From: Bacilli bacterium
GTDB taxonomy: Bacteria; Bacillota_I; Bacilli_A; RFN20; CAG-826
DNA: 64,000 bases
Assembly: GCA_022653695.1 (NCBI GenBank)
Contig: JALCSW010000001.1
Span: 53,979 to 117,978 of the forward strand
Direction: 5' to 3'
The position numbers were made by a program, and so were the translations under genes. Below the pieces are notes generated by a model. That model saw nothing but the letters and a program-made list of their open reading frames with translations, searched no databases and was not told the origin of the DNA. Positions within the stretch are counted from its first letter, which is position 1; every line of letters begins with the position of its first letter. Below, in pieces: positions 33,784-57,274 of the stretch.

Positions 33784-34067
33784 AAGACCCCCTTTTGTTT
33801 CTGTTGATTAAGATTATACAGGAAAAGGCATCCGACGATGAAAAACGGCAAAACCCGATTTGACATTCGGCGGTTCTTCTTAAGCCAAAACGAAAACTAC
33901 TTCATCCGACAAAGAGCCGAAACGCGATCCTTAGGAAACATGGCAATTGTCTTAATGACGTTAAGAAAACAGGGCTTTCGACGAACAACAATCGCTTTAT
34001 TTCAATAATTAGTTCGCGCGCGCGAAATTAGCCTATGCCAAAGGAGAAAGACGATAAGCGGATTTGG

Positions 34068-34081
34068 TGAAAGCGCTTTCG
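34068..34081. promoter_or_regulatory. cre-like palindrome TGAAAGCGCTTTCG upstream of -35
   Basis: Matches the CcpA cre consensus TGWAARCGYTWNCW at 13/14 positions. Same motif recurs at 38978, 39002 and 47037. Confidence 0.5.
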
Positions 34082-34089
34082 GTTTTTTG

Positions 34090-34118
34090 TTGACGGACGG
34101 GGGAAGCGTTCCTATAAT
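34090..34118 (+). promoter_or_regulatory. consensus sigma-A promoter TTGACG-17-TATAAT
   Basis: -35 at 34090-34095, -10 at 34113-34118, exact 17-nt spacer. Confidence 0.65.
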
Positions 34119-34125
34119 AGTGATG

Positions 34126-34145
34126 TTAGGAAATCGGTTTCCTAA
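34126..34145. promoter_or_regulatory. LacI-family-type operator TTAGGAAATCGGTTTCCTAA (20-bp palindrome, central CG)
   Basis: 9-bp arms TTAGGAAAT / GTTTCCTAA (one mismatch) around CG. Lies 8 nt after the -10 box. Related copies at 38906, 46966 and 47096. Confidence 0.6.
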
Positions 34146-34247
34146 AATGATGAGCCGGTAAGGCAATCAATCAGGAAATCAAGTTAAAGTCGGTATTTGA
34201 GGTTCATGCCCTTGAATATAAAACCCACAATTTGGGAGGGAAAAAGT

Positions 34248-35786
34248 ATGAGAAAAACAAAAATCCTGTTTGTCTTGGCGGCAAGCGGACTTATGTTGTC
34301 GGCATGCGGAGGCACTAGCTCGTCAGCGAGTAGTCTCACCCCGTCGTCAACGTCCGCCTCGGCCTCTTCGAACGGCGGATCCACTTCAGAAAGCTCCTCT
34401 AGCCACAGCGCTAGTTCGTCGAGTCAGGCCGGTTCTTCTAGTTCCTCGAGTTCTTCCAGCTCCTCGAGTTCGTCAAGCTCTTCTTCGACTCCTTTCGTCG
34501 GAACGGACGTTTTCCTCACCGCGAGCAACGTTTTGGTTTACGGCGGCGAAGCGGCGGCCAAAACCGGTTACCTCACCTATTGGGCCGGCGATGGCGGAGC
34601 CCTTACGAGTTCAAGTTATGATGGCACCACCATCACGATGAACTTCACGATGGGGTGGGCTTGGTACGGCGTGCAACTGTTCTATGTCGCCCCTTATGCC
34701 ACTCCCAACAACGACTATGCCATCTCGGCCACTCTTAACTCGAGCGTTTCCGGCAGCGTTACGATCGACGGGAAAGCCGTTTCCCTGACGGCGAACGCGA
34801 ACTATGACTTCAGCACCGACTTCACCCAAGGCAACGGGGCGACCTTCGGCATGCAAATGGGCGTTGACGGCACTCCGCTAGGAAACGCCACCGTCAAAAT
34901 CTCGAATCTCAAAATCGTCGATAACACCAAAACCAACGTCTATCATGAAGTCACCTTCAAGAACGGCGACTCCCTCGTCGGCACGGTGCTCGCCAAGGAA
35001 GGCGAGGCCCTTTGGACTTATCCGGCCGATCCGACGCCCGCGGAAGGTTACGTCTTCGATGGCTGGTTCTATGGCGACAGCGAATTCAAGCCGGGATCAG
35101 ACGTCGTCAACGGCGATTTCACCGTAACCGCCAAATTCATCCAATGCGCCACCTATTCCGTCAAGCTATATAACGGCAGCGAACTTCTTGACACCTTGAC
35201 CGTCGCGGAAGGGAAGACCGTTTCGATCCCTGACGACCTTGACTATGGCTTCGCCCATAAGGCCAACGGCTGGTACAAGGACAGCGAATTCACGAACGCC
35301 TGGGACTTCGACGCCGACACCATCACCGCCGAAACCAGCCTTTACGTCCGCACCGCCGTCTATCCGGACGAGACTTACGAAAACAGCGAAGACCTTGGCT
35401 GGAAGATCGCCGACCAATACATGGCGATGCAAGACGACGGCTCCTTCCTCTACAGCGGGGAGGCCCCCTTTGGGGGAAGCGAAAGCTGGCATCGCCAAAT
35501 CAACTTCGACAACGTGCCGGTCGGCGTCGCGGGCACCAACTACGCGCTGACGTTCGAATACAAGATGAACTATGCCGCGGATACGAAGATTTGGGACAAT
35601 GTCGCCAACGCCGACAACGGCACCACGACTTCCCTGGCCGTCGCCGCCTCTTGGACGAAGATCACCATCAATTTCGCCGGCGGCGCCTTCAACGCCAACA
35701 ACAAACTCTCGTTTGAGCTCGGCGCCCAAAGCGGAGACGACACCGTCGCCTTCGCCCTCCGCGACGTCGCCGTCGCGGCGGCCTGA
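34248..35786 (+). CDS. surface lipoprotein with Ser-rich linker and two Listeria-Bacteroides-type repeat domains
   Basis: About 512 aa from MRKTKILF. Lipobox LSACGG. ~70-aa poly-Ser linker. Two repeats of pattern Y.V.F..G....T......A..P.DPT..GY.F.GW (List_Bact_rpt-like). GGGAGGG SD. Confidence 0.55.
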   Translation: MRKTKILFVLAASGLMLSACGGTSSSASSLTPSSTSASASSNGGSTSESSSSHSASSSSQAGSSSSSSSSSSSSSSSSSSTPFVGTDVFLTASNVLVYGGEAAAKTGYLTYWAGDGGALTSSSYDGTTITMNFTMGWAWYGVQLFYVAPYATPNNDYAISATLNSSVSGSVTIDGKAVSLTANANYDFSTDFTQGNGATFGMQMGVDGTPLGNATVKISNLKIVDNTKTNVYHEVTFKNGDSLVGTVLAKEGEALWTYPADPTPAEGYVFDGWFYGDSEFKPGSDVVNGDFTVTAKFIQCATYSVKLYNGSELLDTLTVAEGKTVSIPDDLDYGFAHKANGWYKDSEFTNAWDFDADTITAETSLYVRTAVYPDETYENSEDLGWKIADQYMAMQDDGSFLYSGEAPFGGSESWHRQINFDNVPVGVAGTNYALTFEYKMNYAADTKIWDNVANADNGTTTSLAVAASWTKITINFAGGAFNANNKLSFELGAQSGDDTVAFALRDVAVAAA

Positions 35787-35876
35787 TCACCCTGAGGATC
35801 ATACGCCATCATAAGGGGCGAAGCATCGCGATTGCTTTGCCCCTATTCAATGCCATCGCCAAATAAGGAAAAACCC

Positions 35877-38843
35877 ATGAACAAAAACACAAAGAAATTC
35901 GTCGTCGCCGCCTTGCTGGCCCTCACCATGGCCGGAACGGTTTCCTGCTCCTGCTCAAGCGTCGGAGGATCCTCGGAATCGAGCGCGGGAGAAAGCCAAT
36001 CGGCCGGAGCCTCGTCCGGAGAGGGAAGCTCCGCCTCTTCAGGCGCCTCTTCATCGAATGGCGGTTCGTCCGCCTCTTCAAGCTCGAGCGGCTCTTCTTC
36101 CGACTCGACCGGATCATCAAACTCGTCTTCGGGCACTTCGTCCAGCTCATCTTCCTCCTCCGGTTCCCCCAGCGGGGAAATCTCGCTCACGGGCGTCGAA
36201 GGCGCCTCGACCCCGAAAGGCCGTTATTTCGATCCCCTGAAGGGAGTCAGCGCGAAAGGAGCCGACGGAGCCGACATCACGAGCGCGATCGATATCTCCG
36301 GCAACGTCGACTACAGTATCGCCGGCGATTACCCTCTCGTTTACACCGTCTCGGATAACGGCAAGAAAGTCACCAAGAACCGGACCATAACCGTCACGAA
36401 CGACGGTTTGGGAAGCTATGCCCGCAAGAAAAGTTACGGCGAAGAAAAGACCGTCAACCTCGGCAAGGGATCGTATCTGGAAGGCAACAGCGACCTTATC
36501 GATTTCCGACCAGCCGACCCCTCGTTCGTCGACGACGAATTGATTGACGAAGCCCCGCTTCCGACCAATCGGTGGTGGAGCGGATTCGAAACCGCCAATT
36601 ACGGCGGGGTGACGCTCGCGGCCACCAATCCCCTTTACGTGAAGCTCAGCGCCGCTGGGGTCTCACTCACCAACAAAGGCACCGGCTTCACCCAGTATTT
36701 CACGGTCAACGACACCTTTGGGACCGCGCAGACCACCATGAGCCAATTCGCCCCCACCTTCAACGACATCAGCGTCGCCTCCGCCTCAATGGGATCCAAT
36801 CCCGTCAGCAAAGTCATCGGCTACAGCGAGAACTCCGTTCGCCTTTCCATGCGGAACAGTTCCGCTGGGGCCGATGAACTGGTGGCCAACCTCGTGCAGG
36901 GATCGCCTTTCGTCTTCTTTGAGAGCGATTCCCACACCATAAATTTGAACCTGCGCCTCGACGCGGTCACGAAACCCTATATCTTCTATGACCTCTCGGG
37001 CAACGTCATTACCGACTCCTACACCGGAGACGGCATCGTGATCGAACTGCCCCAAGCCCACTGCGGCTACGCGACGACTTATCCTAGCGTCGGCATCGGG
37101 GCCGCCCTTTATAAGGACTTCTATTACATCGTCAACGCCCCGAAGGGGTCCTCCTTCGCTTTCTCGCAACTCAAACACCCTTCAAATGAGTACAAAGACC
37201 ATGTGGCCATCACGCTCAACGGATCGAATTATCTCTCCGTGGGGATGTTGCCAAGCCTCGGCGAGGCAGGCCTCTACCATGCGGCCGGCTACTCCTTCAT
37301 CGACGCAGCCGATTCCTCATTCAGCATCGACAAGGCGAAAGCCGAGGTCACCACGACTTTCCGCGAAGCCGTGCAACATGTCGACGGCGGAAACGAAGAG
37401 CCCCTGCTAGCCCTGTTGCCGCACCAGTGGAAACATAGCGACGCCGCTTTGACATCCAGCTCTTTCAAAACCATGCGGGGAACCAATAAGGTACTTAAGG
37501 GCCGCACGTTCGCGACGACGAATGAGTTCCGGGGTCTTCTCCCCGGTTTCACGACCCCGCTCAACGGCGCCTTTAGCGCCGCGGACGCCAAAACCTACGC
37601 GACCAACTTGCTTAACGCCACCGTTCCGACGGGAAGCTTCGAAGAGGGGGGCAAGAACTTCATCGACGCCCCGGGGCCATACTGGAACGCCAAAGCGCTT
37701 TATCCCCTTTCACAAGCCATCTTGGCGATGAAGCAGCTTGGGGAGACCGAACTCACAAGCCAACTCGTCGCCCGCCTCAAGGACGACATGGTCGATTGGT
37801 TCACCTATTCGGGAACCGACGACGACCGTTTCCTCTATTACGACGAAGTCTACGGCACGATGTATTACAGCAATGACGATTTCTCGACCGGCAGCCGCCT
37901 TAGCGACCACCACTTCACTTCGGGATATCTCGTCTACGCCTCGGCCGTCCTCTCGATGGTCGACGGCTCCTTCCTCAGCGATTACGGCGACATCGTGACC
38001 CTCCTAGCCCGCGATTACGCTGATTACCAACGGAACGACGGAACCTATCCCTATCTCCGCTCCTTCGACACTTGGGCCGGCCACAGCTGGGCCGACGGTC
38101 GAGGTGACTTCGGGGATGGGAACGACGAGGAAAGCTCGGGCGAGTCGCTGAATTCCTGGGCCGCCGCTTACCTATTCGGAACGGTGTCGGGCAACCAAGA
38201 TATGGTCGACGCCGCCATCTATGGCTATGCGACCGAAATGGAATCCGTGAAGCAATACTGGTTCAACTACGATGGCGACAATTGGGATGCCGGCCTTTCG
38301 AACAACACCCACGTCGTCGGCATCGTCTGGGGGGCCAAGAACGACTGCGCGACGTGGTTCGGCAGCAACCCCGAATTCATCTATGGGATCCATTGGCTTC
38401 CCACGGGCGAGTATCTCACGGGCTACACCCTCGGCGATCAGGACGCCGCCACCTTCACGACCATCTATGACGAAATGCTCTCCAAACTCAATGGCACCAT
38501 CCGCACCTGGTGGAGCAACATGTGGGCCATGCAGGCCCTCATCGATCCCGACGGCGCCGTCAACGCCTTCGACAGTTCCAAGATCCTCGGCGACGATTAT
38601 CCGTATGAGCTCACAGGTTCGTACTGGATGGTGAACGCCCTCGCGGGTCTGGGCCGCAAGAGCCTCGACGACTATGCCGAGTTGAAAGAGGGAATCGCAG
38701 CCTCGGTCTACGAGAAAGGCGAAACGAAGACCCTGCTGGCCTATAACAGCACCGCTTCCGCCCAAAGCGTTCAGGTCGTGGTGAATGGGGGTGTCGTCAC
38801 CAAAACCATAGCCGCCAACAGTTACGCCAACTACAGCCTTTAA
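35877..38843 (+). CDS. GH81-family endo-beta-1,3-glucanase lipoprotein with Ig-like domain
   Basis: About 988 aa from MNKNTKKF. Lipobox VSCSC, Ser-rich linker, Ig-like/DUF5011-type domain. GH81-like motifs SDHHFTSGYLVYASAV and FDTWAGHSWADG...EESSGESLNSWAAAYLFG. Confidence 0.65.
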   Translation: MNKNTKKFVVAALLALTMAGTVSCSCSSVGGSSESSAGESQSAGASSGEGSSASSGASSSNGGSSASSSSSGSSSDSTGSSNSSSGTSSSSSSSSGSPSGEISLTGVEGASTPKGRYFDPLKGVSAKGADGADITSAIDISGNVDYSIAGDYPLVYTVSDNGKKVTKNRTITVTNDGLGSYARKKSYGEEKTVNLGKGSYLEGNSDLIDFRPADPSFVDDELIDEAPLPTNRWWSGFETANYGGVTLAATNPLYVKLSAAGVSLTNKGTGFTQYFTVNDTFGTAQTTMSQFAPTFNDISVASASMGSNPVSKVIGYSENSVRLSMRNSSAGADELVANLVQGSPFVFFESDSHTINLNLRLDAVTKPYIFYDLSGNVITDSYTGDGIVIELPQAHCGYATTYPSVGIGAALYKDFYYIVNAPKGSSFAFSQLKHPSNEYKDHVAITLNGSNYLSVGMLPSLGEAGLYHAAGYSFIDAADSSFSIDKAKAEVTTTFREAVQHVDGGNEEPLLALLPHQWKHSDAALTSSSFKTMRGTNKVLKGRTFATTNEFRGLLPGFTTPLNGAFSAADAKTYATNLLNATVPTGSFEEGGKNFIDAPGPYWNAKALYPLSQAILAMKQLGETELTSQLVARLKDDMVDWFTYSGTDDDRFLYYDEVYGTMYYSNDDFSTGSRLSDHHFTSGYLVYASAVLSMVDGSFLSDYGDIVTLLARDYADYQRNDGTYPYLRSFDTWAGHSWADGRGDFGDGNDEESSGESLNSWAAAYLFGTVSGNQDMVDAAIYGYATEMESVKQYWFNYDGDNWDAGLSNNTHVVGIVWGAKNDCATWFGSNPEFIYGIHWLPTGEYLTGYTLGDQDAATFTTIYDEMLSKLNGTIRTWWSNMWAMQALIDPDGAVNAFDSSKILGDDYPYELTGSYWMVNALAGLGRKSLDDYAELKEGIAASVYEKGETKTLLAYNSTASAQSVQVVVNGGVVTKTIAANSYANYSL

Positions 38844-38862
38844 CAGTTGAGCGAAAAAGATC

Positions 38863-38890
38863 AGCGCCACGAAAATGGCGCTTTTCTTTT
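38863..38890 (+). terminator. rho-independent terminator
   Basis: AGCGCCA-CGAAAA-TGGCGCT followed by TTTCTTTT. Confidence 0.75.
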
Positions 38891-38905
38891 ATTGTGTTAA
38901 CCGAA

Positions 38906-38925
38906 AAGCGAAATCGGTTTCCTAA
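38906..38925. promoter_or_regulatory. degenerate copy of the LacI-type operator (perfect right half GTTTCCTAA)
   Basis: AAGCGAAATCGGTTTCCTAA, flanked by GTTAAC...GTTAAC. Confidence 0.4.
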
Positions 38926-38977
38926 AAAACGTTAGTTAACATCGAAGAAACAAGTAACCATCAGCATTTTCAAATTG

Positions 38978-39015
38978 TGAAAGCGCTTATATTTTTGATT
39001 GCGAAAGCGCTTTCC
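38978..39015. promoter_or_regulatory. two tandem cre-like sites (TGAAAGCGCTTATA and CGAAAGCGCTTTCC)
   Basis: Both contain the GAAAGCGCTT core. The second overlaps the -35/spacer of the downstream promoter. Confidence 0.45.
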
Positions 39016-39027
39016 TTAATCTATACT
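38999..39027 (+). promoter_or_regulatory. sigma-A promoter TTGCGA-17-TATACT
   Basis: -35 at 38999-39004, -10 at 39022-39027. AGGAGG SD before ATG 39077. Confidence 0.5.
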
Positions 39028-39076
39028 TGCTTTGTATTTATGGGAGAAGTGCGTTCTCCCTTACAGGAGGGTTTCT

Positions 39077-41005
39077 ATGCATAAGTCCAAGAAACTGTTT
39101 ACGATTTTCTCTAGCGCGGCGCTGGCTTTGACGGTCGGCGGAGTCGCCATTGGCCTCAGCGGCGGCAACGTCAAAGCCGCCAACGCCGATGAAGTTGCCA
39201 CGATCGGTTCGCTAAGCGACTTCAACAGCGTGTTCGATGGAGGCGCCGGAAGTTCTGCCAAAGATATCACTTTGACGGCCGATATCGATTTGGGTGGCAT
39301 GTCTTTCGGGACAGCCAAAATGGCCGGTGAATATACCGGAACATTTGACGGGGGCGGTCACAAAATAACCAATTTCCTTGCCGGCGGAAATGCCGGTTTG
39401 TTCAACATTTCGTCGGGAACCATCAAGAATTTGACGCTTGAGTGCACCGCTAACGCCAATGGAACCTCGCCTCTGGCGTTCCAAAATAACGGCTCTGTCA
39501 CCGGGTGTCACGTCGTCGAAACGGTTTCATCCGCCTTAAACACCCTTTCAGGCTATTTCTGCAACGGAAGCGGAACGATCTCTGACTCCTACGCCCATTA
39601 CATATTCAACGCCTCCTGCCAAGGAACGAATACCGTATTTCCGTTCTATCGCGAAGGCTCGCCGACGATCACCGACTCCTATTACACAAAGAGCGACGCA
39701 ACGACCGGGATAACCATTACAGCAAACGTGGGAGCCAGCGAAACGGACCAGGTTTGCGGCGTGTCCGTTGCCGACAAAACCATAACCATGGGCGCCGATG
39801 AAACTCTTTCGGCTTCCACATATGGGTCGACGTATTCCGCGATCGCGTGGACGATTGACGATACGGGAATTGCGACGCTATCGAACGAAACGACCGACAC
39901 GGTTACCATTTCGGGCGTCTCCGCCGGCACCGCGACGCTGACATGCACCTATACATCGACTTTGGGAAGTTTCGCGAGTTCCTCGACCATCACCGTGCAA
40001 AACAGCTCGGCCGTTTCGGACGTAAGCGTTTCCCCCACATCAACATCTCTGTACACCGGGGCCACCACAACCCTCACCGCTACCCTGACCGGCAACGTTT
40101 ATGATCACGTCGCTTGGACGAGCGATGACGAAAGCCATGCGACCGTCGCGGGAGACGGCTTAACCGCCACCGTGACCGGCGTCGCCGCCGGCCCTGCCAA
40201 TGTCGCGATAACTGTTTACGATTCAAGCAACGGCGTCTTGGCGAGCGCCTCCTGCGCCGTGACAGTCAACGCCGCCGTGACGTTCGACTTCTACCTCGCC
40301 GTCAACTCGTCCTTCTCTTGGACCGCCGAATCGGCCATCTTCTACGGAGGCGGAATCACCGAAACCTCCTTCGATATGACCAATACCGGATATACTCTTC
40401 GCTTAAACGACGCCACCAACTTGAACACGCTGACCGAATATGACCTTTACTATCTGAACGTCAACGCTTCGGCCCTCGGAATGGTTGGCGCGACTGGCGT
40501 TTATGTCCAGGCCGGCAACGGTCAGAACCCCGGACGCTGGGGCTCGGGTTATAACGTCGATTCCTACACCAACGGTTTTGCGCTCTACACTCCTTTCGCT
40601 TCATCGGGCGCCCTTCAGAGCATCTGCACGGGTAGCGGGGCCAAAGAAGGCATCGATTGGGTCAACGGGCTTACCGATTGGAGAGACGGCAACGATTCGA
40701 TCTGCTATCTCCTCGATGGGGCGAACGAAACCAAGAAAACGACCATCCTCGATTCCTATAATGCCCTTTCGGGCGACGCGAAGACCTTCTTAGGGACCCT
40801 CACCGACGATACCGCCGATTACGATTCGACTTACGGCACCACGATTTCCTATCTAAGCGCCGCCGGAAGTCCCGCCATCGCCGTATTCTCCGAACTCCCC
40901 GACACCAAGTACACCGTTCTCTTCGTCACCGTCGGCATCGCCGCGTTGGCGGTCGGCGGTTACTTCATCGTCAGAGCCACGAAGAAAAGGAAAGCCAAAG
41001 ACTGA
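39077..41005 (+). CDS. surface protein with GLUG-motif domain, Big_2 Ig-like repeats and C-terminal TM anchor
   Basis: About 642 aa from MHKSKKLF. Signal peptide. GLUG-like segment FDGGGHKITNF...GLFNISSGTIKNLTLE. Two or more BIG2-like repeats (TISGVSAGTATLTCTY, TATVTGVAAGPANVAITV). C-terminus LPDTKYTVLFVTVGIAALAVGGYFIVRATKKRKAKD. Confidence 0.55.
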   Translation: MHKSKKLFTIFSSAALALTVGGVAIGLSGGNVKAANADEVATIGSLSDFNSVFDGGAGSSAKDITLTADIDLGGMSFGTAKMAGEYTGTFDGGGHKITNFLAGGNAGLFNISSGTIKNLTLECTANANGTSPLAFQNNGSVTGCHVVETVSSALNTLSGYFCNGSGTISDSYAHYIFNASCQGTNTVFPFYREGSPTITDSYYTKSDATTGITITANVGASETDQVCGVSVADKTITMGADETLSASTYGSTYSAIAWTIDDTGIATLSNETTDTVTISGVSAGTATLTCTYTSTLGSFASSSTITVQNSSAVSDVSVSPTSTSLYTGATTTLTATLTGNVYDHVAWTSDDESHATVAGDGLTATVTGVAAGPANVAITVYDSSNGVLASASCAVTVNAAVTFDFYLAVNSSFSWTAESAIFYGGGITETSFDMTNTGYTLRLNDATNLNTLTEYDLYYLNVNASALGMVGATGVYVQAGNGQNPGRWGSGYNVDSYTNGFALYTPFASSGALQSICTGSGAKEGIDWVNGLTDWRDGNDSICYLLDGANETKKTTILDSYNALSGDAKTFLGTLTDDTADYDSTYGTTISYLSAAGSPAIAVFSELPDTKYTVLFVTVGIAALAVGGYFIVRATKKRKAKD

Positions 41006-41022
41006 TTAGCCGCCCTTAATGG

Positions 41023-41059
41023 AAGGCGTTCCTCATTCAAAAAAGGGGAGCGCCTTTTT
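41023..41059 (+). terminator. rho-independent terminator
   Basis: AGGCGTTCC-loop-GGAGCGCCT (one G-U pair) followed by TTTTT. Confidence 0.65.
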
Positions 41060-41100
41060 CTAAACTCCGCATTCCCCCGCCAAGAGGTTACAATGAATCG

Positions 41101-41595
41101 ATGAAACAATCCCTCATCTCGCTAGAAGACCTAAGGGCCGCCGATCGAAAGAACGCCTGGCTCATCGCTTTCGAGGTTTTTCTCGTCATGGCGATGGGGG
41201 CCGCCACCGCTTTGATATACGTTTTCCAAAGCAGGGCCACCCAAACCATTTTCATTTGGGTAGGATCAATCATCTATATCCTCGTTCTAACCGTTTTTTT
41301 CTATGTTCTTTTCATGATGATCCGACCGCTAGGCAGTTACCGCCGCTTCATGAGGAAGGCCCTCTCCAAACCGCGTCCGCTCAATGACGTCAGCGTCCTT
41401 TCCTTGAGCAAGGAGAGGGAGACCTACAAGGGTTTTCCTTGCTTTTCCCTCCGCGTCAGGGAACTCGACGAAGGCACCGTCTGGAACGTCCGTTACGAAT
41501 CGTCGGCGCCGATCGACGTCACGATAGGCGGCGTCTACGAAATCGAAACCTACGATGAGGTCCTCTGCGCGATAAAAGAGGAGAAACGGCGATGA
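41101..41595 (+). CDS. hypothetical membrane protein (2 TM plus ~80-aa soluble domain)
   Basis: 164 aa. First gene of a chain of five ORFs all joined by ATGA overlaps. Confidence 0.45.
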   Translation: MKQSLISLEDLRAADRKNAWLIAFEVFLVMAMGAATALIYVFQSRATQTIFIWVGSIIYILVLTVFFYVLFMMIRPLGSYRRFMRKALSKPRPLNDVSVLSLSKERETYKGFPCFSLRVRELDEGTVWNVRYESSAPIDVTIGGVYEIETYDEVLCAIKEEKRR

Positions 41596-42257
41596 AGGTA
41601 GGCGTCACAAAAGAGAAAATCGGCGACTTCTTCACGAGTTATGGCTGGGTCGAACTGCTTCTTGCCATCGTGAGCGTGGTGGCCTGGTACTGGCCCATAA
41701 CCGCCATCGACCAAATCAGGAGCGACGAACGAATCAACTTCTTCATCGAATGCTATGGTTTCAAAGACGAGGAATTCCAAAACCAATTGCGGGATGATTT
41801 GGCCGATAGCGGGGTCGAGGAGGTCAACGTCTACTCTTATTCCCCGAGCGATTCCCTCATCAACAGCTATTACGAGGCCTTCGGAACCGAAAGCGACTTC
41901 CTCTTTCTCTTATCAAGCGACCTCGACACGATGTTCGAAAACCCCAACGCCGCTCTTCTTAGCGAATTCCTCGCTTGGGGGGACGCGCTGAAAGCGGAAG
42001 TCATGCCAAACTTCTCCGCCGCTTCGTTCTACGAGGTCGAAGGGGTCCCTTACGCCCTCAAGGTTTATGACCCTGAAGATGCCTCCTATAGCCAGAGGAT
42101 CGAGGATTTCGCCCTTTTCCATACCGAGATGAAGAGCGAGGCCGTCTACCTCCTCCTTAACGCGGCGACCCCCAATTTCGGTTCCTACGCCGACGGATCG
42201 GCGACCTCCAACGCCGTAGCGGCCTTATCTATGTTCATCGAAAGGTATTACTTATGA
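41592..42257 (+). CDS. hypothetical membrane-anchored protein (1 TM plus acidic ~190-aa extracytoplasmic domain)
   Basis: 221 aa, ATGA overlap on both sides. No recognisable family. Confidence 0.45.
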   Translation: MKVGVTKEKIGDFFTSYGWVELLLAIVSVVAWYWPITAIDQIRSDERINFFIECYGFKDEEFQNQLRDDLADSGVEEVNVYSYSPSDSLINSYYEAFGTESDFLFLLSSDLDTMFENPNAALLSEFLAWGDALKAEVMPNFSAASFYEVEGVPYALKVYDPEDASYSQRIEDFALFHTEMKSEAVYLLLNAATPNFGSYADGSATSNAVAALSMFIERYYL

Positions 42258-43072
42258 GAGAACGCAAACGAAAAGTCGAAAGAACGGAGGATGGCAACTT
42301 GCCCCGCACCCGCTGGCAATTGCTCAAAGACACGCTCCGCTGGCGGTTTTGGTCCCTCGCCGTCATCAGCCTCATGGCCATCGTTTTTTACGTCCCCTCT
42401 TTTGCTTGGATGAGTTTTGCCAGCATGTCCGGCCTCTTAGAAGCCGACAACTTCTACTCGATTTTGCTCACCCACGCGGTGGATGCCCTTTTGCTAGGCG
42501 TATTCGGCCTTGGGCAAGCCGGCCTTTTCTATTTCCTGAAGCGGCTCGCGTGGGGGGAAGGGGCCAGCATCCCCTCCGATTTTTTCGAAGGCATCAAGAA
42601 AAATTGGAAAGCCTTTTTCCTTCTTTTCTTCGTCATGGGGCTCCTCTATGCCGTTTTGGAGCTTAATCTGGCCTCCATCGCCAATTCCGGATGGGATTCC
42701 GTTGCCATCGGGGCCGTGAGTGGGGTGAGTTACGCCGTTTTCTTCCTTTTTGTGGCCGCCATCCTCATAACCCTCGTCGAAAGCGTCATCTACAGCTCCC
42801 GCCTCTTCTCCCTCTTCGTCAACGCGTGGCGGTTCCTCATCGGGGCTTTCCTCACGAACGTCCCCGTTTTCTTGGCCTATTTGCTGCCCCTCATCCTTTA
42901 CGAATCCATCCCCAGCTACATCGCTCAGTGGGTCGCCATTCTCTTCGAGGGGGTCTTCTATCTAGGTTTCAGCGGTTTTTTCCTCACCATCTATTGCCAC
43001 TCCCTTTTCGATAAGACCATCAACAAACGCCAATTCCCGGAAATCGTCCGCAAGGGGCTCCGCAAAGAATGA
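42254..43072 (+). CDS. YesL-like (DUF624 family) polytopic membrane protein
   Basis: 272 aa, ~6 TM. DUF624-like N-region (...FFEGIKKNWKAFF...) resembling B. subtilis YesL-type proteins found beside sugar ABC systems. Confidence 0.5.
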   Translation: MRERKRKVERTEDGNLPRTRWQLLKDTLRWRFWSLAVISLMAIVFYVPSFAWMSFASMSGLLEADNFYSILLTHAVDALLLGVFGLGQAGLFYFLKRLAWGEGASIPSDFFEGIKKNWKAFFLLFFVMGLLYAVLELNLASIANSGWDSVAIGAVSGVSYAVFFLFVAAILITLVESVIYSSRLFSLFVNAWRFLIGAFLTNVPVFLAYLLPLILYESIPSYIAQWVAILFEGVFYLGFSGFFLTIYCHSLFDKTINKRQFPEIVRKGLRKE

Positions 43073-44385
43073 GATACGAATTCCGCCTCAGCCAAATCGG
43101 CGGCCCTTATTGGGAGAAAAGAAGCCTGTCCGAAGGCGAAGGCGAGCCGATTTCCTTCGATCCGTCGAAGCCTCAGCAAACCATCATCGGCTTCGGGGGC
43201 GCCTTCACGGAAGCCGCCGCCCATGTCTACGCGTCGATGAGCCCCGCGCTGAAAAGGCAGACGATCGCCCTTTGCTTTGGGGAAGACGGGCTCCGTTACA
43301 ACCTCGGAAGGACGACGATCGGCTCCTGCGACTTCTCGCTCTCCCAATACGATTACGCGAGGAAAGACGACCTTTCGGACTTTTCCTTGCGCCACGACGA
43401 AAAGGAAATCATCCCCTTTCTTAAGGACGCCGAAAAAGCAAGGCCGCTGCGCCTATTGGCTTCTTCATGGTCGCCTCCCGCCAAATGGAAAACGAGCGGA
43501 AGCAAACTTCAGGGCGGGCGCTTGAAAAAGGACTGTTACGGCATTTACGCCGACTATCTCGCCAAATATGTCGAAGCCATGGCGGAAAACGGCCTGCCGA
43601 TCGAATTTCTCACCCCCCAAAACGAGCCGCTGGCCGCCCAAACGTGGGAAAGCTGCCTCTATGGACCCGCGGAGGAGGCCAAACTGATACTCGAACTGAA
43701 AAAGCGGATGCCGAACATCAAAATCCTGGCCTATGACCACAACCGAGACAAACTGTGGGACCGGGAAAAGGACATCTTCCGGAAACGCGAGGTCAAGGAG
43801 GCCGTCCACGGAATGGCCTACCACTGGTACTTCCCAGGTGGTCACGAGGAAATCGCCAAATGCCTGGCCTCATTCCCCGACAAGCCCCTCATCCAAACCG
43901 AAAGCTGCGTTGAGTTGCTGAACCTTAATCGCGCGGATCCCGCCGCCGCGATCGGGAACCCAGAAGGCATGAGGCGTTATGCCAAAGACCGCCTCGAGGA
44001 TCTTCGAAGCGGATCGTCCGGCTTCATCGACTGGAACCTTCTGCTCGACCTGAAAGGGGGGCCAAATCACGCCGGCAATTACTGCGAGGCGCCCCTCATG
44101 AGCGATGGGACGCGCTTGCTCATCAACCCTTCCTACTACGCGATCAAGCACCTTTCGCGTTTTATCGATCCGAATTCGCGGCTCATCGCCTCGGCTTTCC
44201 CTATGGGGATCGTCGGGGCGGCTTTCCTGAACCCCGATGGCGGCCTTTCCCTCGTGATGCTTAACGAAGGAGAGGGGAAAGCGGTTTCTTTATTCGTTGA
44301 AAACCACCAGTGTTCATGCTATCTTAATGGAAATTCCATCTGTTCAATACGCATATGGCAAGCCTTGAAGCAAACTGAAAAATGA
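43069..44385 (+). CDS. GH30-family glycoside hydrolase (beta-1,6-glucanase/glucosylceramidase-like), cytoplasmic
   Basis: 438 aa. GH30 motifs IGFGGAFTEAA, ASSWSPPAKWKTSG, TPQNEP (acid/base), DHNRD, nucleophile region QTESCV. The last ~25 codons run through the lacI promoter and look low-complexity. Confidence 0.75.
   Translation: MRYEFRLSQIGGPYWEKRSLSEGEGEPISFDPSKPQQTIIGFGGAFTEAAAHVYASMSPALKRQTIALCFGEDGLRYNLGRTTIGSCDFSLSQYDYARKDDLSDFSLRHDEKEIIPFLKDAEKARPLRLLASSWSPPAKWKTSGSKLQGGRLKKDCYGIYADYLAKYVEAMAENGLPIEFLTPQNEPLAAQTWESCLYGPAEEAKLILELKKRMPNIKILAYDHNRDKLWDREKDIFRKREVKEAVHGMAYHWYFPGGHEEIAKCLASFPDKPLIQTESCVELLNLNRADPAAAIGNPEGMRRYAKDRLEDLRSGSSGFIDWNLLLDLKGGPNHAGNYCEAPLMSDGTRLLINPSYYAIKHLSRFIDPNSRLIASAFPMGIVGAAFLNPDGGLSLVMLNEGEGKAVSLFVENHQCSCYLNGNSICSIRIWQALKQTEK
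44297..44339 (+). promoter_or_regulatory. sigma-A promoter TTGAAA-17-TATCTT followed by perfect 13-bp palindrome ATGGAAATTCCAT
   Basis: -35 at 44297-44302, -10 at 44320-44325, palindrome at 44327-44339. Lies inside the 3' end of the GH30 ORF, just upstream of the lacI-family gene. Confidence 0.45.
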
Positions 44386-45395
44386 TCACCATTTACGACA
44401 TCGCCAAAAAAGCCGGCGTCTCGCCCAGCACCGTCAGCAAAGTCATCAACGATTACAAAGCCATCCCCGAGGAAACGAAAGAAAAAGTCCATCGTATCAT
44501 GGATGAGATGAACTACATTCCCAACACCGGCGCCAAAGCCTTAAGCAGCCGCAAGAGTTACAACGTTGGGATCTTAGCCTACTTCGGAATGAAAATATCG
44601 CCTTTCAAGCACACTCTTTTCACCGATATCCTCGATTCCTTCCAAACCGAGATGAACGCTCAGAACTACGACCTTCTTTTCATCTCCCATAACGTGGCCG
44701 GCCAAAACGGCTCTTTCTACAAAAACTGCATCTCCCGCGACGTCGCCGGCGTCTTGCTTTTCGGCAACACCAACAACGAGGAAATGCAAGAAGTCATCCA
44801 CAGTTCCATCCCCAAGGTCTGCTTCGATTACGTGGGCGGGGAAATGACGAGCGTCCATAGCGACAACTACGCCAAAATGAAGGAACTCACGAAACGGCTC
44901 ATCGAGATGGGCCACCGCAACATCTTCTTCGTCCACGGCGAACCCAACGGGGTCACCTCCGAACGTATCGCGGGTTTTAAGGACGCTCTCAAGGAAGCGG
45001 GCATCCCCCTTAAGGACTCGATGCTCCAAGAAAGCATGTATCTCGACAACGAGCACATCCGCTCCCTCACGACCGATATCTTGCGGCAACCTCGCGATGT
45101 GCCTACCGCCATCATGTACCCTGACGACTATTCGGCCATCCAGGGCATCGCCGCCATCAAAAAAGAAGGCCTTTCCTGCCCTAAGGACATCTCGGTCACG
45201 GGCTTCGACGGCATATTCTCGGGGCAAGTGACGAACCCCCGTCTCACCACGGTAAAGCAAAATACCGAGGAAATAGGGCAAACGCTCGCCAAATCGCTCA
45301 TCGAGTGCATCGAGAGAAAGAGAGTTGAGCCTCGTTCGATTGAGATCAAGGCAACCATTCTTAGCGGGGAGAGCACCGGCCCCGCCCGAAAGTAA
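44382..45395 (+). CDS. LacI-family transcriptional regulator
   Basis: 337 aa. N-terminal HTH (MITIYDIAKKAGVSPSTVSKVIN) and periplasmic-binding-protein-like sugar-binding core. Confidence 0.85.
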   Translation: MITIYDIAKKAGVSPSTVSKVINDYKAIPEETKEKVHRIMDEMNYIPNTGAKALSSRKSYNVGILAYFGMKISPFKHTLFTDILDSFQTEMNAQNYDLLFISHNVAGQNGSFYKNCISRDVAGVLLFGNTNNEEMQEVIHSSIPKVCFDYVGGEMTSVHSDNYAKMKELTKRLIEMGHRNIFFVHGEPNGVTSERIAGFKDALKEAGIPLKDSMLQESMYLDNEHIRSLTTDILRQPRDVPTAIMYPDDYSAIQGIAAIKKEGLSCPKDISVTGFDGIFSGQVTNPRLTTVKQNTEEIGQTLAKSLIECIERKRVEPRSIEIKATILSGESTGPARK

Positions 45396-45402
45396 GAAAA
45401 GA

Positions 45403-45440
45403 AAACCCGTTTCGGTCCGCAAGACGAAACGGGTTTTTAA
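45403..45440. terminator. bidirectional rho-independent terminator
   Basis: AAACCCGTTTCG-loop-CGAAACGGGTTT flanked by A and T runs, between convergent genes. Confidence 0.75.
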
Positions 45441-45455
45441 AACGCTTGGCGCTTC

Positions 45456-46958
45456 TTATGCGTGCCCTTCGTAGACAAGGGAGACGTCGTCGAAGCAGGC
45501 GCTGCCGCTGGAGGCGACGAGACGAACCTCAAGGGTTTTGGCCTTAGCGGGGACCGTGATCTCGCCGGAATAGGTCTTGTAAGCGTCGGCGGAATCGATG
45601 GCGATCGTGGTCGCGGGGGCCACGTCAAGCCCCAAACGGCTGAGATAATGGATCTCAAGGGCTCCGGCGCCGGAGGCAACGTTCTTCCCGGCGAACGAAT
45701 AGCGGTATCGGTAGCCTTCGTAGGCACTGCCGATATTCTGGGCGAAAATCATCGGCTCGGTCGCGGCGGCGGTCAGCCGCAAGGCCTTCGATCCGCTCGC
45801 GGAATCGCTCACGAACTCGCTGGTCCCGTCCCCGGCGTCGCTCTTGAGCCAACCCATGTAAGACGAGTCTTGCCTAGCAATCGCGCTGCGCTCCATGTCG
45901 CCGTTAGAAAGGCGATTGGCGTTTTTGACGTCGGAATAATCGATCGAATCGATTCCGGCCATCGAGGGGTCGACTTGCGTGTAACCGGCTTTGGCTCGCG
46001 ACTCCTCGTAATACTGCGTTTCGTCGAAGGCGGTGTACTTGATGGATTTGACGAGCATGAAATCCTCGTCGAAGGCCGCCATGTTGGTCCAGTTGGGGAA
46101 CCACAGCCCGATCCATAGCGGCATGTCGATGTCGGTGACGACGCCTCCGCTCACGGAAGCGATGCAGACACCATCGACGAACCAATCGACTTTGCCTTTG
46201 TCGGTGCCGTTGTAATTGGTGTACCAATCGAAGGTGTACTTATGGAAACTGCCGTCGTTCAGATAGCAAAGCGATGAAGTGTCCACGTTGACGGTCTGCT
46301 TGTTGGTCTTTTTGGTCCAGCTCGTGCACCACTCATGGGAAAAGGTGTCTTTCTCCGCCTCCCCGCCGATCTCGATGTCGATCTCGTTTTGGGACGTGTT
46401 CTCGTTTCCGGTCTCACATAGGTAGGTCCACATGGCCGAAACGCCGCCATAGCGTGGCATCGCCGCCATATCGATCTCATAGCGGCCCGGCGCCAAGTGG
46501 TTCTTGCTGATCAGGCATCCGCCCTCGGGCAGGATATAGCCATTCGCATCGACTTTGCTGTCGGAAGATGAGCTATACATGCCGCGGCCTTTGATGCCGA
46601 GGTAGGTTTCGTCACCATCCTTAACATAATAGAGGTTACGCGCCTGAACCCCGTTATGGGGATAAGAAGTCGCGTCGTTCTGCCACACGCCGGATAGGGC
46701 GTTCCAATAATCGTCGTTAAGAGCCCCTCCGCTTAGTTCCTCGTCGATATTGAGGTCGCATCCCGCGTCGAAGCCAACGCGGGTATTCACGTGATCGTAA
46801 TAGGCCGTCCCGTTAAACGGGGTGTCGTCAAGATCGGGTTCAAGGCCGCTTGAGGAAACGGCGGAAGAGCCCAAACTTGAGGCTTCGCCACAGGCGGCCA
46901 AAGGCAAAAACGCGAGGGCGGAGATCAGAAGGGCGAAAGGCTTTTTATTTGGTTTCAT
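45456..46958 (-). CDS. GH16-family beta-glucanase (laminarinase-type) lipoprotein with C-terminal carbohydrate-binding module
   Basis: 500 aa. Lipobox LAACGE. GH16 catalytic motif EIDIEIGGE. C-terminal ~140-aa CBM4_9/CBM22-like jelly roll ending ...CFDDVSLVY. Confidence 0.75.
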   Translation of the reverse strand: MKPNKKPFALLISALAFLPLAACGEASSLGSSAVSSSGLEPDLDDTPFNGTAYYDHVNTRVGFDAGCDLNIDEELSGGALNDDYWNALSGVWQNDATSYPHNGVQARNLYYVKDGDETYLGIKGRGMYSSSSDSKVDANGYILPEGGCLISKNHLAPGRYEIDMAAMPRYGGVSAMWTYLCETGNENTSQNEIDIEIGGEAEKDTFSHEWCTSWTKKTNKQTVNVDTSSLCYLNDGSFHKYTFDWYTNYNGTDKGKVDWFVDGVCIASVSGGVVTDIDMPLWIGLWFPNWTNMAAFDEDFMLVKSIKYTAFDETQYYEESRAKAGYTQVDPSMAGIDSIDYSDVKNANRLSNGDMERSAIARQDSSYMGWLKSDAGDGTSEFVSDSASGSKALRLTAAATEPMIFAQNIGSAYEGYRYRYSFAGKNVASGAGALEIHYLSRLGLDVAPATTIAIDSADAYKTYSGEITVPAKAKTLEVRLVASSGSACFDDVSLVYEGHA

Positions 46959-46965
46959 GCTTGTT

Positions 46966-46985
46966 TTGGGAAATCGGTTTCTCTA
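46966..46985. promoter_or_regulatory. LacI-type operator copy (TTGGGAAATCGGTTTCTCTAA) downstream of the GH16 gene promoter on the minus strand
   Basis: Left arm and CG centre conserved. Right arm has a 1-nt insertion. Confidence 0.45.
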
Positions 46986-46990
46986 ATCAA

Positions 46991-47019
46991 AATATAACTT
47001 GTATTCGGTCCTTTTACAA
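46991..47019 (-). promoter_or_regulatory. sigma-A promoter for the GH16 gene (minus strand TTGTAA-17-TATATT)
   Basis: Reverse complement of 46991-47019 gives TTGTAA ... TATATT with a 17-nt spacer. Confidence 0.5.
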
Positions 47020-47036
47020 CATGCGATTTGAAAAAG

Positions 47037-47050
47037 TGAAAGCGCTTCCT
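47037..47050. promoter_or_regulatory. cre-like site TGAAAGCGCTTCCT (perfect match to TGWAARCGYTWNCW) between divergent promoters
   Basis: 14/14 match to the cre consensus. Placed between the divergent GH16 and SBP promoters. Confidence 0.55.
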
Positions 47051-47058
47051 GAATTTCG

Positions 47059-47087
47059 TTGACGGGAAGCCGTCCCATCCATATAAT
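47059..47087 (+). promoter_or_regulatory. consensus sigma-A promoter TTGACG-17-TATAAT for the sugar ABC operon
   Basis: -35 at 47059-47064, -10 at 47082-47087. Identical architecture to the 34090 promoter. Confidence 0.65.
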
Positions 47088-47095
47088 GAGATCGG

Positions 47096-47115
47096 TTAGG
47101 AAATCGATTTCTTAA
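47096..47115. promoter_or_regulatory. LacI-type operator TTAGGAAATCGATTTCTTAA
   Basis: 20-bp palindrome with ATCGAT centre and one arm mismatch, 8 nt after the -10 box. Confidence 0.6.
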
Positions 47116-47136: not shown

Positions 47137-48612
47137 ATGAGTAAAAAACATGGATTGTCCGCCTTTATCATGGGATTGGCCCTAACGGCTTCTTTGGCCG
47201 CTTGCGGCGATACGAGCGGAGCGGCGAACTCCGGAGCCGGACGCAGTTCCAACGGCGGTTCGAACGATGAATTGTGGATCTGTGTCTACGATGGCGGATA
47301 TGGAACCCAATGGTTGAAGGACGTCGGCGCGGAATTCACCGCGGCGACCGGCATCAGCGTCCATTATGATGCCGACACCTCTCTTCTCGACCGCATCGAA
47401 AGCGCCCTCCGAGACGGGGGCGATTACGATCTCTATATGTCGCACGGCCTCAACTGGCAAACCTACGCCGCCAACGGCTGGCTCGCCTCGCTTGACGACG
47501 TTTATTCAAGCCCGGTCGAAGGCTTCAACGGCACTTTTGCCGACCGCGTGATCAATGGGGCCGGCGATTTCAGCAAAACGATCGGAAAAGACAACGCGGA
47601 GCATTATTACAAAGCCTGCTACACCCAAGGAGCCGGCGGCTTCGTCTATAACATGAACATGTTCGAGAAAAACGGCTGGAGCGTCCCGAAGACTTATGCC
47701 GATCTGGTCAACCTTTGCGGCACGATCAATGCCGCGGGGCTTAAGAACGCCCTCAATAAACCCGTCAGGCCTTTCGCCTGGAGCGGAAGAGACCGCGAGT
47801 ATTACTGGGACTATCCGCTATTCGAATGGTGGGCTCAGTTAGCCGGCGTCGACAAAGTCGAAACCGTCCATAAGTACCTCGGTCCGACCGGGCAGTACTC
47901 CGACGGCTACGAAATGTATAACCCCAACACCTATTACAAGGAGTTCATGCAGGCTTACGATATGTGGTACGACCTCATCGGAAACAATAGCGGCAATTAT
48001 TGCACGAACGACTATTCGGCGACCCTAAGCACCGCCAAAGCCGAATTCATCACCGGACAAGCCGCGATGATCCCTTACGCCCAATGGGCCAAATACGAAC
48101 TCGAGGAGCTCAACGACGGGCCGCTCGATTTCAACATCGCCATGATGCCGACCCCGAAGGCCACCGCTTCCTCGATCGACGTCAACTACCGCGTCGGCTT
48201 CGGCGATTCCATGATCGTCCCTTCCAACGCCGTCAACGTGAGCGCCGCCAAGAAATTCATCAACTTCATGGCTACCGAACAAGCCTGCAAGACTTTTGTC
48301 AAGGATAGCCGCGGCGCCTTCCTCGCCTTCAACTATGGCGACATCGACATGAGCGACATCGAAAAGGACGATCCTTATATCAAGAGCGTTCATCAGAAAG
48401 TCAATTTCACGGGTATCAGCGACGCTTCGACGAACCCCATCACCTATCGCAACATCAACTGCGTCATGCCGTGGGTCCTTAACAAGTACTACTACAAGAG
48501 TTGCTGCAGCGATCCCTCGAACTTCACCGCTTCCAAAGTCGGCGCCGAGGTTTACGCGACCGCCAAAGAAAACTGGGCCACCTGGCTCCGCAACGCCTCC
48601 CTTAGCGACTAA
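47137..48612 (+). CDS. sugar ABC transporter substrate-binding lipoprotein (SBP family 1)
   Basis: 491 aa. Lipobox LAACGD. Extracellular solute-binding family-1 fold. AAGGAGAAGAG SD. Confidence 0.85.
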   Translation: MSKKHGLSAFIMGLALTASLAACGDTSGAANSGAGRSSNGGSNDELWICVYDGGYGTQWLKDVGAEFTAATGISVHYDADTSLLDRIESALRDGGDYDLYMSHGLNWQTYAANGWLASLDDVYSSPVEGFNGTFADRVINGAGDFSKTIGKDNAEHYYKACYTQGAGGFVYNMNMFEKNGWSVPKTYADLVNLCGTINAAGLKNALNKPVRPFAWSGRDREYYWDYPLFEWWAQLAGVDKVETVHKYLGPTGQYSDGYEMYNPNTYYKEFMQAYDMWYDLIGNNSGNYCTNDYSATLSTAKAEFITGQAAMIPYAQWAKYELEELNDGPLDFNIAMMPTPKATASSIDVNYRVGFGDSMIVPSNAVNVSAAKKFINFMATEQACKTFVKDSRGAFLAFNYGDIDMSDIEKDDPYIKSVHQKVNFTGISDASTNPITYRNINCVMPWVLNKYYYKSCCSDPSNFTASKVGAEVYATAKENWATWLRNASLSD

Positions 48613-48621
48613 GGTGCCCTT

Positions 48622-49641: not shown

Positions 49642-49644
49642 TTT

Positions 49645-50592: not shown

Positions 50593-50620
50593 TAACTAAT
50601 TTCATGAAAGGAGAAAAACA

Positions 50621-52090: not shown

Positions 52091-52140
52091 ACGGTTCTGG
52101 CCGCCCTTGTGGCGGCCCTCCCAAAAAGAGGATCAACATC

Positions 52141-56348: not shown

Positions 56349-57274
56349 AAAAGAAAACAGTTTTGATCGTCGCCTGCCTCCTCTCCGTTTCCGCCATTGC
56401 CGGGTGCGCGGGTTTCTCGAGCGCCCCCCTCGACTCGTCGCTCCCTTCCTCCTATTCTTCCTCTTCCGCCCCGGCTTCCTCCGGCGAAGGCGGGATGAGT
56501 TTGGTTTGGTCCGACGAATTCGACGGCACCGCCCTCAACGAGGACTATTGGAGCTATATGATCGGCAATGGCAGCGATTATGGGGTTTACGAATGGGGGA
56601 ACAACGAAGCCGAGAATTACCAACGGGATAACGTCGAGGTCTCCGACGGTTTTCTCCACATCACCGCCAAAGCGGAGAAAACGAAAATCGGCTCGAAGGA
56701 GTATTCCTACACTTCCGGGCGGATTCGCACCGCCGGCAAAGTCAGTTGCGTTTATGGCCGCGTCGAGGCTCGGATCGCCCTTCCTTTCGTCGATGGGATG
56801 TGGCCCGCTTTCTGGATGCTTCCCGAAAAGGCCTATAATGGTTTGGGTTGGCCCACCTCAGGGGAAATCGACATCATGGAAAACAAAGGCAGCACCGACG
56901 CCTACGCCTCGAGCGCCGTCCACTACGCCAACCTCAACGGCGACCACGCTTACGTGACCGACGGGAAAACCTTCAGCAAACGCAACGGCGAGAGCACGAC
57001 CGATTTCCATGTCTATTCGTGCGATTGGGACGAGGACGGATTCGTCTTCTCGTGCGACGGGGAAAGCTACTTCAGCGTTGAGAAGAGGGTCTACCATCCC
57101 GGCAACAGCCGCATCTACCCCGACGACGACAACGCCCCCTTCAACGCCCCGTTTCATATCCTCCTCAATTTGGCCGTGGGCGGAAATTTCGACAACGGGG
57201 CTTTGCCTCCCAGCGGTTTCGATAGTTGTGAGATGAAGGTCGATTACGTGAGGATCTACGGTTTCGAGGGATAG
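56345..57274 (+). CDS. GH16-family beta-glucanase lipoprotein (paralogue)
   Basis: About 309 aa from MKKKTVLIV (ATGA overlap with previous gene). Lipobox IAGCAG. GH16 motif [11 protein letters not shown]. Roughly 45% identical to the preceding GH16 by eye. Confidence 0.8.

Follow-up and report, generated by a model that had tools for sequence, protein, structure and literature searches.

Probable LacI-family operators and cre-like sites at the promoters of a beta-glucan locus in an uncultured Bacilli bacterium

We examined a 64-kb window (the whole stretch of DNA analysed here, 56% GC) from an uncultured Bacilli bacterium, in which two palindromic motifs, A and B, recur at the promoters of what the gene content indicates is a beta-1,3/1,6-glucan (laminarin-type) utilisation locus. 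Motif A (consensus TTAGGAAAYCGRTTTCYTAA) is very likely the operator of a LacI-family repressor encoded within the locus itself (44382-45395, + strand), and motif B (consensus TGNAAGCGCTTWCN) resembles the catabolite-responsive element (cre) and would be read by a different LacI-type protein. Taken as a whole, we consider this two-protein reading probable on comparative sequence evidence. An initial annotation of the same DNA had described a pathway-specific LacI operator combined with CcpA-type catabolite control; every copy of both motifs that it listed was recovered, and its interpretation appears largely right for motif A and plausible for motif B.

Motif A and the LacI-family regulator

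A position weight matrix for motif A, built from the sites of relatives and applied with a cut-off of 14 bits, matched the window at six places only (34126, 38906, 38999, 44273, 46966 and 47096), all of them at promoters of this one locus. The two best sites, TTAGGAAATCGGTTTCCTAA at 34126-34145 (35.4 bits) and TTAGGAAATCGATTTCTTAA at 47096-47115 (35.0 bits), are 20-bp palindromes with a central CG and 8 of the 9 arm positions paired. They begin 7 and 8 nt past the -10 boxes of two promoters of the form TTGACG-17-TATAAT (34090-34118 and 47059-47087, both + strand), with centres at about +11 and +12. A third operator, TTGGGAAATCGGTTTCTCTA at 46966-46985 (25.1 bits), lies 5 nt past the -10 of the divergent GH16 promoter (TTGTAA-17-TATATT, 46991-47019, - strand) and ends 8 nt ahead of the GH16 start codon. 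Promoters were called by consensus scan, which returned all three of these near-consensus promoters as previously reported. Motif A does follow the -10 box at these three promoters, with centres between about +8 and +12, but the uniform gap of 8 nt that had been described does not hold, the actual gaps being 7, 8 and 5 nt.

The promoter of the Big_2 operon (TTGCGA-17-TATACT, 38999-39027, + strand) is arranged differently: no A site follows its -10 box; instead one A-type site lies over the -35 box and spacer and another about 93 bp upstream. The proximal one had been taken in part for a motif B copy, CGAAAGCGCTTTCC at 39002. This sequence is better described as the right-hand part of a 20-mer, TTGCGAAAGCGCTTTCCTTA (38999-39018), that aligns with A-type operators in relatives and whose left arm doubles as the -35 box. 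The equivalent sites are clearly A-type in two compared loci (TTGGAAACCGCTTTCGTAA in L087 and TTGAAAACCGATTTCCTAA in L089), and the window copy scores 19.4 bits with the A matrix and 15.5 bits with the B matrix. The distal site, AAGCGAAATCGGTTTCCTAA at 38906-38925 (21.0 bits), has one good half; L089 carries an A-type site at the corresponding upstream position.

One further A-type site had not been listed before. The GH30 gene contains, at its 3' end, the sequence AGGGGAAAGCGGTTTCTTTA (44273-44292, 14.4 bits), and 4 nt further downstream is the -35 box of a putative internal promoter for the lacI gene (TTGAAA-17-TATCTT with a TG before the -10, 44297-44325, + strand). The same arrangement is found in L085 and L087 and has been lost in L089; in L087 the region is intergenic, because GH30 is absent there. 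We propose that this site is probably the autoregulatory operator of lacI. The short palindrome ATGGAAATTCCAT (44327-44339), which had been put forward as a related operator behind the same promoter, is present as reported, but it lacks the central CG, and L085, a 90% identical relative, has ATAAAAACTCCAT in its place; it is therefore probably not an operator. L087 carries a different palindrome, AAGGAAACTTTCCTT, with another arm spacing.

Are the motifs perhaps no more than a dispersed repeat, or palindromes that arose by chance and regulate nothing? Of the core shared by A and B, GAAANCGNTTTC, the 64 kb contain seven copies, and every one falls in the glucan locus, between 34069 and 47111. 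The pattern GGAAATCGNTTTC, with at most one mismatch, has 10 matches against 1.36 expected, and TGAAAGCGCTTTC, with at most two, has 12 against 3.16; none of 100 shuffled sequences reached either count. The same 20-mer does occur in 38 other metagenome contigs unrelated to the locus, as a repeat might. However, outside orthologous loci, too, 33 of 39 occurrences are intergenic and directly upstream of genes, the window copies are confined to the promoter regions of one locus, and the sites are kept at orthologous promoter positions across genomes of 28-60% GC amid diverging non-coding sequence. We therefore regard a repeat or chance origin as highly improbable. The two main promoters were also considered as recent duplicates of each other, and this was ruled out: their aligned identity is confined to B, the -35, the -10 and A.

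The identity of the protein that reads motif A is indicated by comparison with related loci. These comprised 80 from reference genomes, collected with a profile of the regulator, others obtained by exact protein look-up, and 54 metagenome contigs from a scan for the 20-mer (individual loci and contigs are cited here by L numbers). In the 1.39 Mb formed by the window and the related loci, the A matrix gave 65 matches of at least 14 bits, nearly all of them intergenic and adjoining regulator or glucan genes. The consensus adjoins orthologues of the local LacI protein in more than 20 distinct genomes and metagenome contigs of 28-60% GC. Relatives whose regulators are 46-66% identical carry the same gene set (GH30, LacI, GH16, transporter, unknown protein, GH149, GH16, MsmK and GH81), and the gene order of the glucan locus is kept across this range of base composition. 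Sites of the TTAGGAAAYCGRTTTCCTAA type recur at the same positions in the promoters of the solute-binding protein (SBP), GH16, GH81 and Big_2 genes, conserved while the adjacent non-coding sequence diverges. About 16 of the 54 metagenome matches to the exact 20-mer sit in orthologous loci, at the same position.

The outer bases of the motif change with the recognition helix of the neighbouring regulator. Regulators with the helix VSPSTVSKV(I/V)N are paired with TTAGGAAA, those with FAPATVSKALN with TATGGAAA or ATAGAAA, and those with CSSATVSKALN, which are Clostridia paralogues, with CGAAA..TTTCG; with three helix variants set against three motif variants, this is a correlation only. Motif A also has the features described for LacI-family operators in a comparative survey (PMC4052901), which are even palindromes of 16-22 bp with a central CG, lying at most 140 bp from a start codon and frequently autoregulatory: motif A is palindromic over an even 20 bp and has CG at its centre, its regulator gene lies in the cluster, and its promoter sites are conserved. 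Because motif A is intergenic, adjoins orthologous LacI genes and covaries with their recognition helix, we conclude that it is very likely the operator of the repressor encoded at 44382-45395, as the initial annotation had supposed.

One observation speaks against so direct an assignment: in other organisms the 20-mer is also found ahead of unrelated genes, so that the motif alone cannot identify its regulator. Its occurrence in unrelated contexts means that it is common either to other regulators or to further regulon members in related lineages.

Several of these contexts can be described. The 20-mer stands upstream of large proteins with a glycerophosphodiester phosphodiesterase domain, of a pectate lyase-like protein and of others, sometimes beside distant LacI paralogues. 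In L096 (3360-3600), L097, L098, L106 and L138 (31-40% GC), a perfect TTAGGAAAYCGRTTTCCTAA begins 2-5 nt past a TTGACA-17/18-TATAAT promoter and precedes a protein of 920-1008 aa with the glycerophosphodiester phosphodiesterase domain, and further upstream there is a cre-like site, AGAAAACGTTTTCA or TGATAGCGCTTTTA. Such genes may be additional members of the regulon in related lineages, or the sites may belong to another regulator with the same motif. In L091, L094, L100, L118, L121 and L130, the 20-mer adjoins LacI-family genes just 23-30% identical to the window regulator, and distant paralogues thus appear to use the same operator sequence.

The regulator is a protein of 337 aa with a helix-turn-helix domain (PF00356) and a periplasmic-binding-protein-like sugar domain (PF13377, PF00532). 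It aligns end to end with the dimeric PurR and CcpA, and the tetramerisation tail of the Lac repressor is missing. It is not CcpA: it is 28% identical to B. subtilis CcpA and falls far below the NCBIfam ccpA cut-off. An identical copy is found on a 642-kb JGI contig and a 90% identical protein in a metagenome-assembled genome named 'Bacilli bacterium', and more distant relatives are labelled Acholeplasmatales, Mollicutes or Erysipelotrichaceae. Among the sequences compared, L005 (CAVGNR010000010.1) is titled Escherichia coli, yet has 38% GC and is nearly identical to the 'uncultured Mollicutes' contig L006; it is evidently mis-binned or mislabelled.

In the mechanism that we propose, a dimer of this protein would bind TTAGGAAAYCGRTTTCYTAA at the glucan promoters and block binding or promoter escape of RNA polymerase, a steric repression suggested by operators that lie just downstream of the -10 at three promoters and over the -35 and spacer at the fourth. 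The A-type site upstream of the internal lacI promoter would provide autoregulation. Release would be brought about by a product of beta-glucan breakdown, for example laminaribiose, by analogy with GlyR3 of C. thermocellum.

Motif B, its place at the promoter and its probable reader

The strict cre patterns TGWAANCGNTNWCA and TGNAANCGNTTNCA have no exact match in the window, each B copy missing them by one or two outer bases, and the copies were therefore located with mismatch-tolerant and matrix scans. The copy at 34068-34081 (TGAAAGCGCTTTCG, 20.9 bits with the B matrix) lies 8 nt upstream of the -35 box, centred at about -50.5, and matches 13 of the 14 positions of the high-affinity cre of B. 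subtilis, TGAAAGCGCTTTCA (PMC3463425). The Big_2 operon has its copy at 38978-38991 (TGAAAGCGCTTATA, 19.5 bits), 7 nt upstream of the -35. The third, at 47037-47050 (TGAAAGCGCTTCCT, 18.4 bits), stands between divergent -35 boxes, 8 nt from that of the SBP promoter and 17 nt from that of GH16. Among 14 non-redundant promoters, T1, G2, A4, C7, G8 and T10 of the B consensus are each present in 14 and C13 in 13, in agreement with the published cre consensus, WTGNNARCGNWWWCAW or TGWAANCGNTNWCA.

Motif B is a class of its own. Its promoter-distal outermost base is T in all 14 B sites, a position occupied by G or A in 27 of 28 A half-sites and never by T, and on either side of the central CG, B has G and C where A has Y and R; B is thus a separate specificity class and not a degraded A. 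In the relatives L016 and L019, the outer bases of A have changed and B is still cre-like. The identification of B as a CcpA-type site by the initial annotation therefore stands as far as a distinct, conserved class matching the cre consensus is concerned, but the textbook layout of catabolite repression that went with it does not: B lies upstream of the -35, and neither over the promoter nor downstream of the transcription start.

The position of B is fixed. In the window, each of the three structural promoters has its B site centred at about -50.5 (-49.5 or -50.5), as do all 14 related promoters, where the gap to the -35 box is 8 nt in 13 cases and 7 nt in one. By comparison, A lies anywhere from 7 to 13 nt past the -10 in the same 14 promoters, and its centre is between 61 and 67 bp from that of B. 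Because the gap to the -35 is fixed while the A-B distance varies, B appears to be phased to RNA polymerase and not to A, which argues against a loop between the two. Looping between paired operators of the GalR or LacI type is also contradicted by the differing specificities of A and B, the spacing of 61-67 bp and the lack of a tetramerisation tail. At one related Big_2 promoter (L089), a cre-like site lies 7 nt upstream of the -35, ahead of the A-type site, and at another (L087) the cre-like site is much further from the -35. The arrangement B-promoter-A was not found in 1 Mb of Clostridia paralogue loci.

This constancy leads to a more specific proposal, that B is no ordinary repressing cre but a module phased to RNA polymerase, in which a LacI-type dimer, placed exactly 8 nt from the -35 (centre -50.5) throughout this lineage, acts through the alpha subunit. 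The dimer would be either a second factor specific to this regulon or an activating CcpA homologue in small-genome Bacilli. We consider the proposal, in either form, somewhat unlikely. If the activating form were true, beta-glucan would be a preferred substrate whose use is reinforced by glycolytic flux.

In the reading that we prefer, B is recognised by a LacI-type protein other than the local regulator, most likely a CcpA homologue bound to HPr-Ser-P. The site lies over the docking region of the C-terminal domain of the RNA polymerase alpha subunit, and its occupation would most likely lower transcription when a preferred sugar is present, through interference with contacts of the alpha subunit or the UP element. 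Activating cre sites are reportedly centred at -56.5 or -55.5 and further upstream in 10.5-bp steps (Turinsky 1998; Presecan-Siedel 1999; Zomer 2007). The centre of B at -50.5 is about half a helical turn from these positions, and we favour interference with the alpha C-terminal domain or the UP element for this reason, with repression as the likelier direction of the effect.

Activation is what the B. subtilis rule would predict: there, cre sites upstream of the -35 are linked with activation (ackA, pta and ilvB), and with repression in special cases such as lev (PMC3463425). If CcpA, bound at B as a cre, activated the glucan promoters or worked from upstream with the RNA polymerase alpha subunit, the use of beta-glucan would be reinforced, not repressed, at high glycolytic flux. 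The strictly conserved gap by which B precedes the -35 of every structural promoter would suit this possibility, as would glucose and glucose-1-phosphate, which the GH16, GH81, GH30 and GH149-like genes suggest as end products of the pathway. Against activation are the phase of the site, about half a turn from the reported activating positions, and the fact that polysaccharide utilisation loci are usually catabolite-repressed. We judge activation by CcpA quite unlikely.

The preferred assignment, of B to a CcpA homologue that represses, has several points against it. Repression is not the default expectation for a cre upstream of the -35, since such sites usually activate in B. subtilis (PMC3463425). 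A tblastn search of the window and 84 related loci with a B. subtilis CcpA query returned only the local regulators, at 26-31% identity, and neither ccpA nor hprK nor ptsH was found in the window and related loci. With the B matrix at a cut-off of 18 bits, 473 kb of lineage loci yielded no B site standing alone; this sample consists almost entirely of glucan loci and short flanks and therefore neither proves nor excludes a global regulon. All strong B sites in it lie within 25-70 bp of an A-type core, with the exception of L014, where the distance is 37 bp from a degenerate A-like site. The only other carbohydrate-active gene found in the window, a GH31 gene (22485-24632), has no B site. Finally, hybrid sites exist (38999, 44273 and GGAAAGCGCTTTCC in L113), and the local regulator may, given these, cross-bind B.

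Much of this evidence would also fit a simpler scheme, in which the local LacI protein alone binds A as a strong and B as an auxiliary site near -50 and represses cooperatively, in the manner of GalR or LacI with paired operators, with no part for CcpA. The core common to A and B in the window, the absence of B without A in the 473 kb, the hybrid sites, the failure to find ccpA, and the A-type site at about -50 of the lacI promoter, the position that B takes elsewhere, all point this way. Opposed to it are the distal outer base and the CG-flanking bases of B, which differ from those of A as though under selection for another specificity, and the cre-like B of L016 and L019, kept where the outer bases of A have changed. 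The A-B distance, in addition, varies by 6 bp, which is more than half a helical turn and speaks against a phase-locked loop, and the protein has no tetramerisation tail. On balance, control by one regulator with two grades of operator seems unlikely.

Since neither ccpA nor a stand-alone B site was found in the sequence searched, the assignment of B to CcpA is one that we infer. It is made plausible by the Acholeplasmatales, the label of some relatives: a CcpA homologue with a small regulon has been reported in A. laidlawii and other members of that group (PMC5138195).

Organisation of the locus and neighbouring features

The glucan locus comprises four transcription units with five promoters, the internal lacI promoter included. 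The promoter at 34090 drives an operon at 34248-38843 (+ strand), composed of a lipoprotein with Listeria-Bacteroides repeats (34248-35786) and a GH81 endo-beta-1,3-glucanase (35832-38843), the latter followed by a terminator-like hairpin and T run (38863-38882, + strand). About 40 bp upstream of the B site of this promoter is a perfect 14-bp GC-rich palindrome, TTCGCGCGCGCGAA (34013-34026), which the scan lists as a terminator-like stem only.

The second operon (39077-45395, + strand), driven by the promoter at 38999, begins with a Big_2 surface protein (39077-41005) and continues with three small proteins of unknown or DUF624 type (41101-43072; 164 aa, 221 aa and 272 aa, the last with a weak DUF624 match), a GH30 enzyme (43069-44385) and the LacI-family regulator. 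The lacI gene converges with the GH16 gene (45456-46958, - strand), which forms a transcription unit of its own with the promoter at 46991-47019; a bidirectional terminator hairpin, read from the sequence, lies between the two genes (45402-45438). The promoter at 47059 drives the remaining operon (47137-59028, + strand), which encodes an ATP-binding cassette (ABC) solute-binding protein and two permeases (47137-50592), an unknown protein of 489 aa (50621-52090), a protein weakly similar to GH149 beta-1,3-glucan phosphorylase (52141-55272), two further GH16 enzymes (55269-57274) and, as its last gene, an MsmK-like ATPase (57277-59028).

The genes at 41101-43072 and 50621-52090 gave nothing significant in searches of Pfam, NCBIfam and PDB sequences. 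The order of these four genes is conserved across almost all of the related glucan loci, and they are candidate components for the uptake or processing of beta-glucan. An Rfam scan of 33700-59000 found no family above threshold.

Beyond the locus, a gene divergent from it (32062-33783, - strand) encodes a 573-aa protein with a major-facilitator-like membrane region and a spermidine/spermine synthase domain. The GH31 glycosidase gene (- strand) is downstream of an M13 peptidase gene and has neither an A-type nor a B-type site in its vicinity. An amidohydrolase-family gene (12656-13912), which possibly encodes a guanine or adenine deaminase, is immediately preceded by a purine riboswitch aptamer (Rfam RF00167, 12528-12626, + strand; 47.2 bits against a gathering score of 37). 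A gene with a HipA-like C-terminal kinase domain (14035-14904, - strand) possibly forms a toxin-antitoxin module with an adjoining small open reading frame, and three tRNA genes are found on the - strand at 440-510, 617-689 and 3959-4031.

Comparison with known systems

The regulation proposed here would be an uncharacterised new instance of a well-known Bacillota design, in which a LacI-family repressor specific to the pathway is combined with a cre-type site. For a locus previously annotated only in generic terms, the analysis provides a regulon model with an operator matrix, promoters, operon boundaries and a probable autoregulatory site. The lineage consists of uncultured gut and digester Bacilli, in whose genomes the A matrix offers a means of finding more members of the regulon. 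One feature is mildly unusual, the cre-like site strictly fixed upstream of the -35, and it bears on the upstream action of LacI- and CcpA-type proteins.

Motif A resembles the operators of the LacI-family sugar regulons that Ravcheev et al. (2014; PMC4052901) reconstructed by comparative genomics in being an even 20-bp palindrome with a central CG at most 140 bp upstream of start codons, with the regulator gene inside the cluster, autoregulation, and a motif conserved across orthologues. A search of the text of that paper returned no laminarin or beta-glucan regulon, and the present orthologous group, which comes from uncultured Bacilli and Acholeplasmatales-like genomes, was not seen in it. 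A close parallel is GlyR3 of Clostridium (Acetivibrio) thermocellum, the LacI-family repressor of the celC-glyR3-licA cluster, which is released by laminaribiose (PMC5483248). In both systems the gene of a LacI-family repressor lies inside a beta-1,3-glucan-active cluster, and the operator, found close to the start of transcription, is a palindrome that resembles cre and has CG at its centre. Autoregulation, which we infer for the present locus, would be shared as well. The operators differ in sequence, however, being TGAACGCGCGTACA for GlyR3 and TTAGGAAAYCGRTTTCCTAA here, and the regulon described here differs further in its five promoters, its ABC transporter and its second, distinct kind of site.

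Motif B shares with the CcpA/cre system of Bacillota all the strongly conserved positions (T1, G2, C7, G8 and C13) and the location at promoters of sugar-catabolic genes. It departs from that system in being fixed at -50.5 upstream of the -35, which is neither a repressing position nor the reportedly activating position at -56.5 or -55.5, and in that no B site was seen outside the present regulon in the sequence searched. The geometry of the promoters as a whole brings to mind the E. coli gal operon. There, Choy, Adhya and co-workers reportedly found that GalR, bound upstream at the operator OE (-60.5), acts through the RNA polymerase alpha subunit, with a second operator, OI, downstream. Here, as in gal, one LacI-family site lies upstream of the -35, within reach of the alpha C-terminal domain, and one lies downstream of the start. 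Unlike the present sites, which differ in specificity and vary in spacing, the two gal operators reportedly bind the same protein and form a loop with HU.

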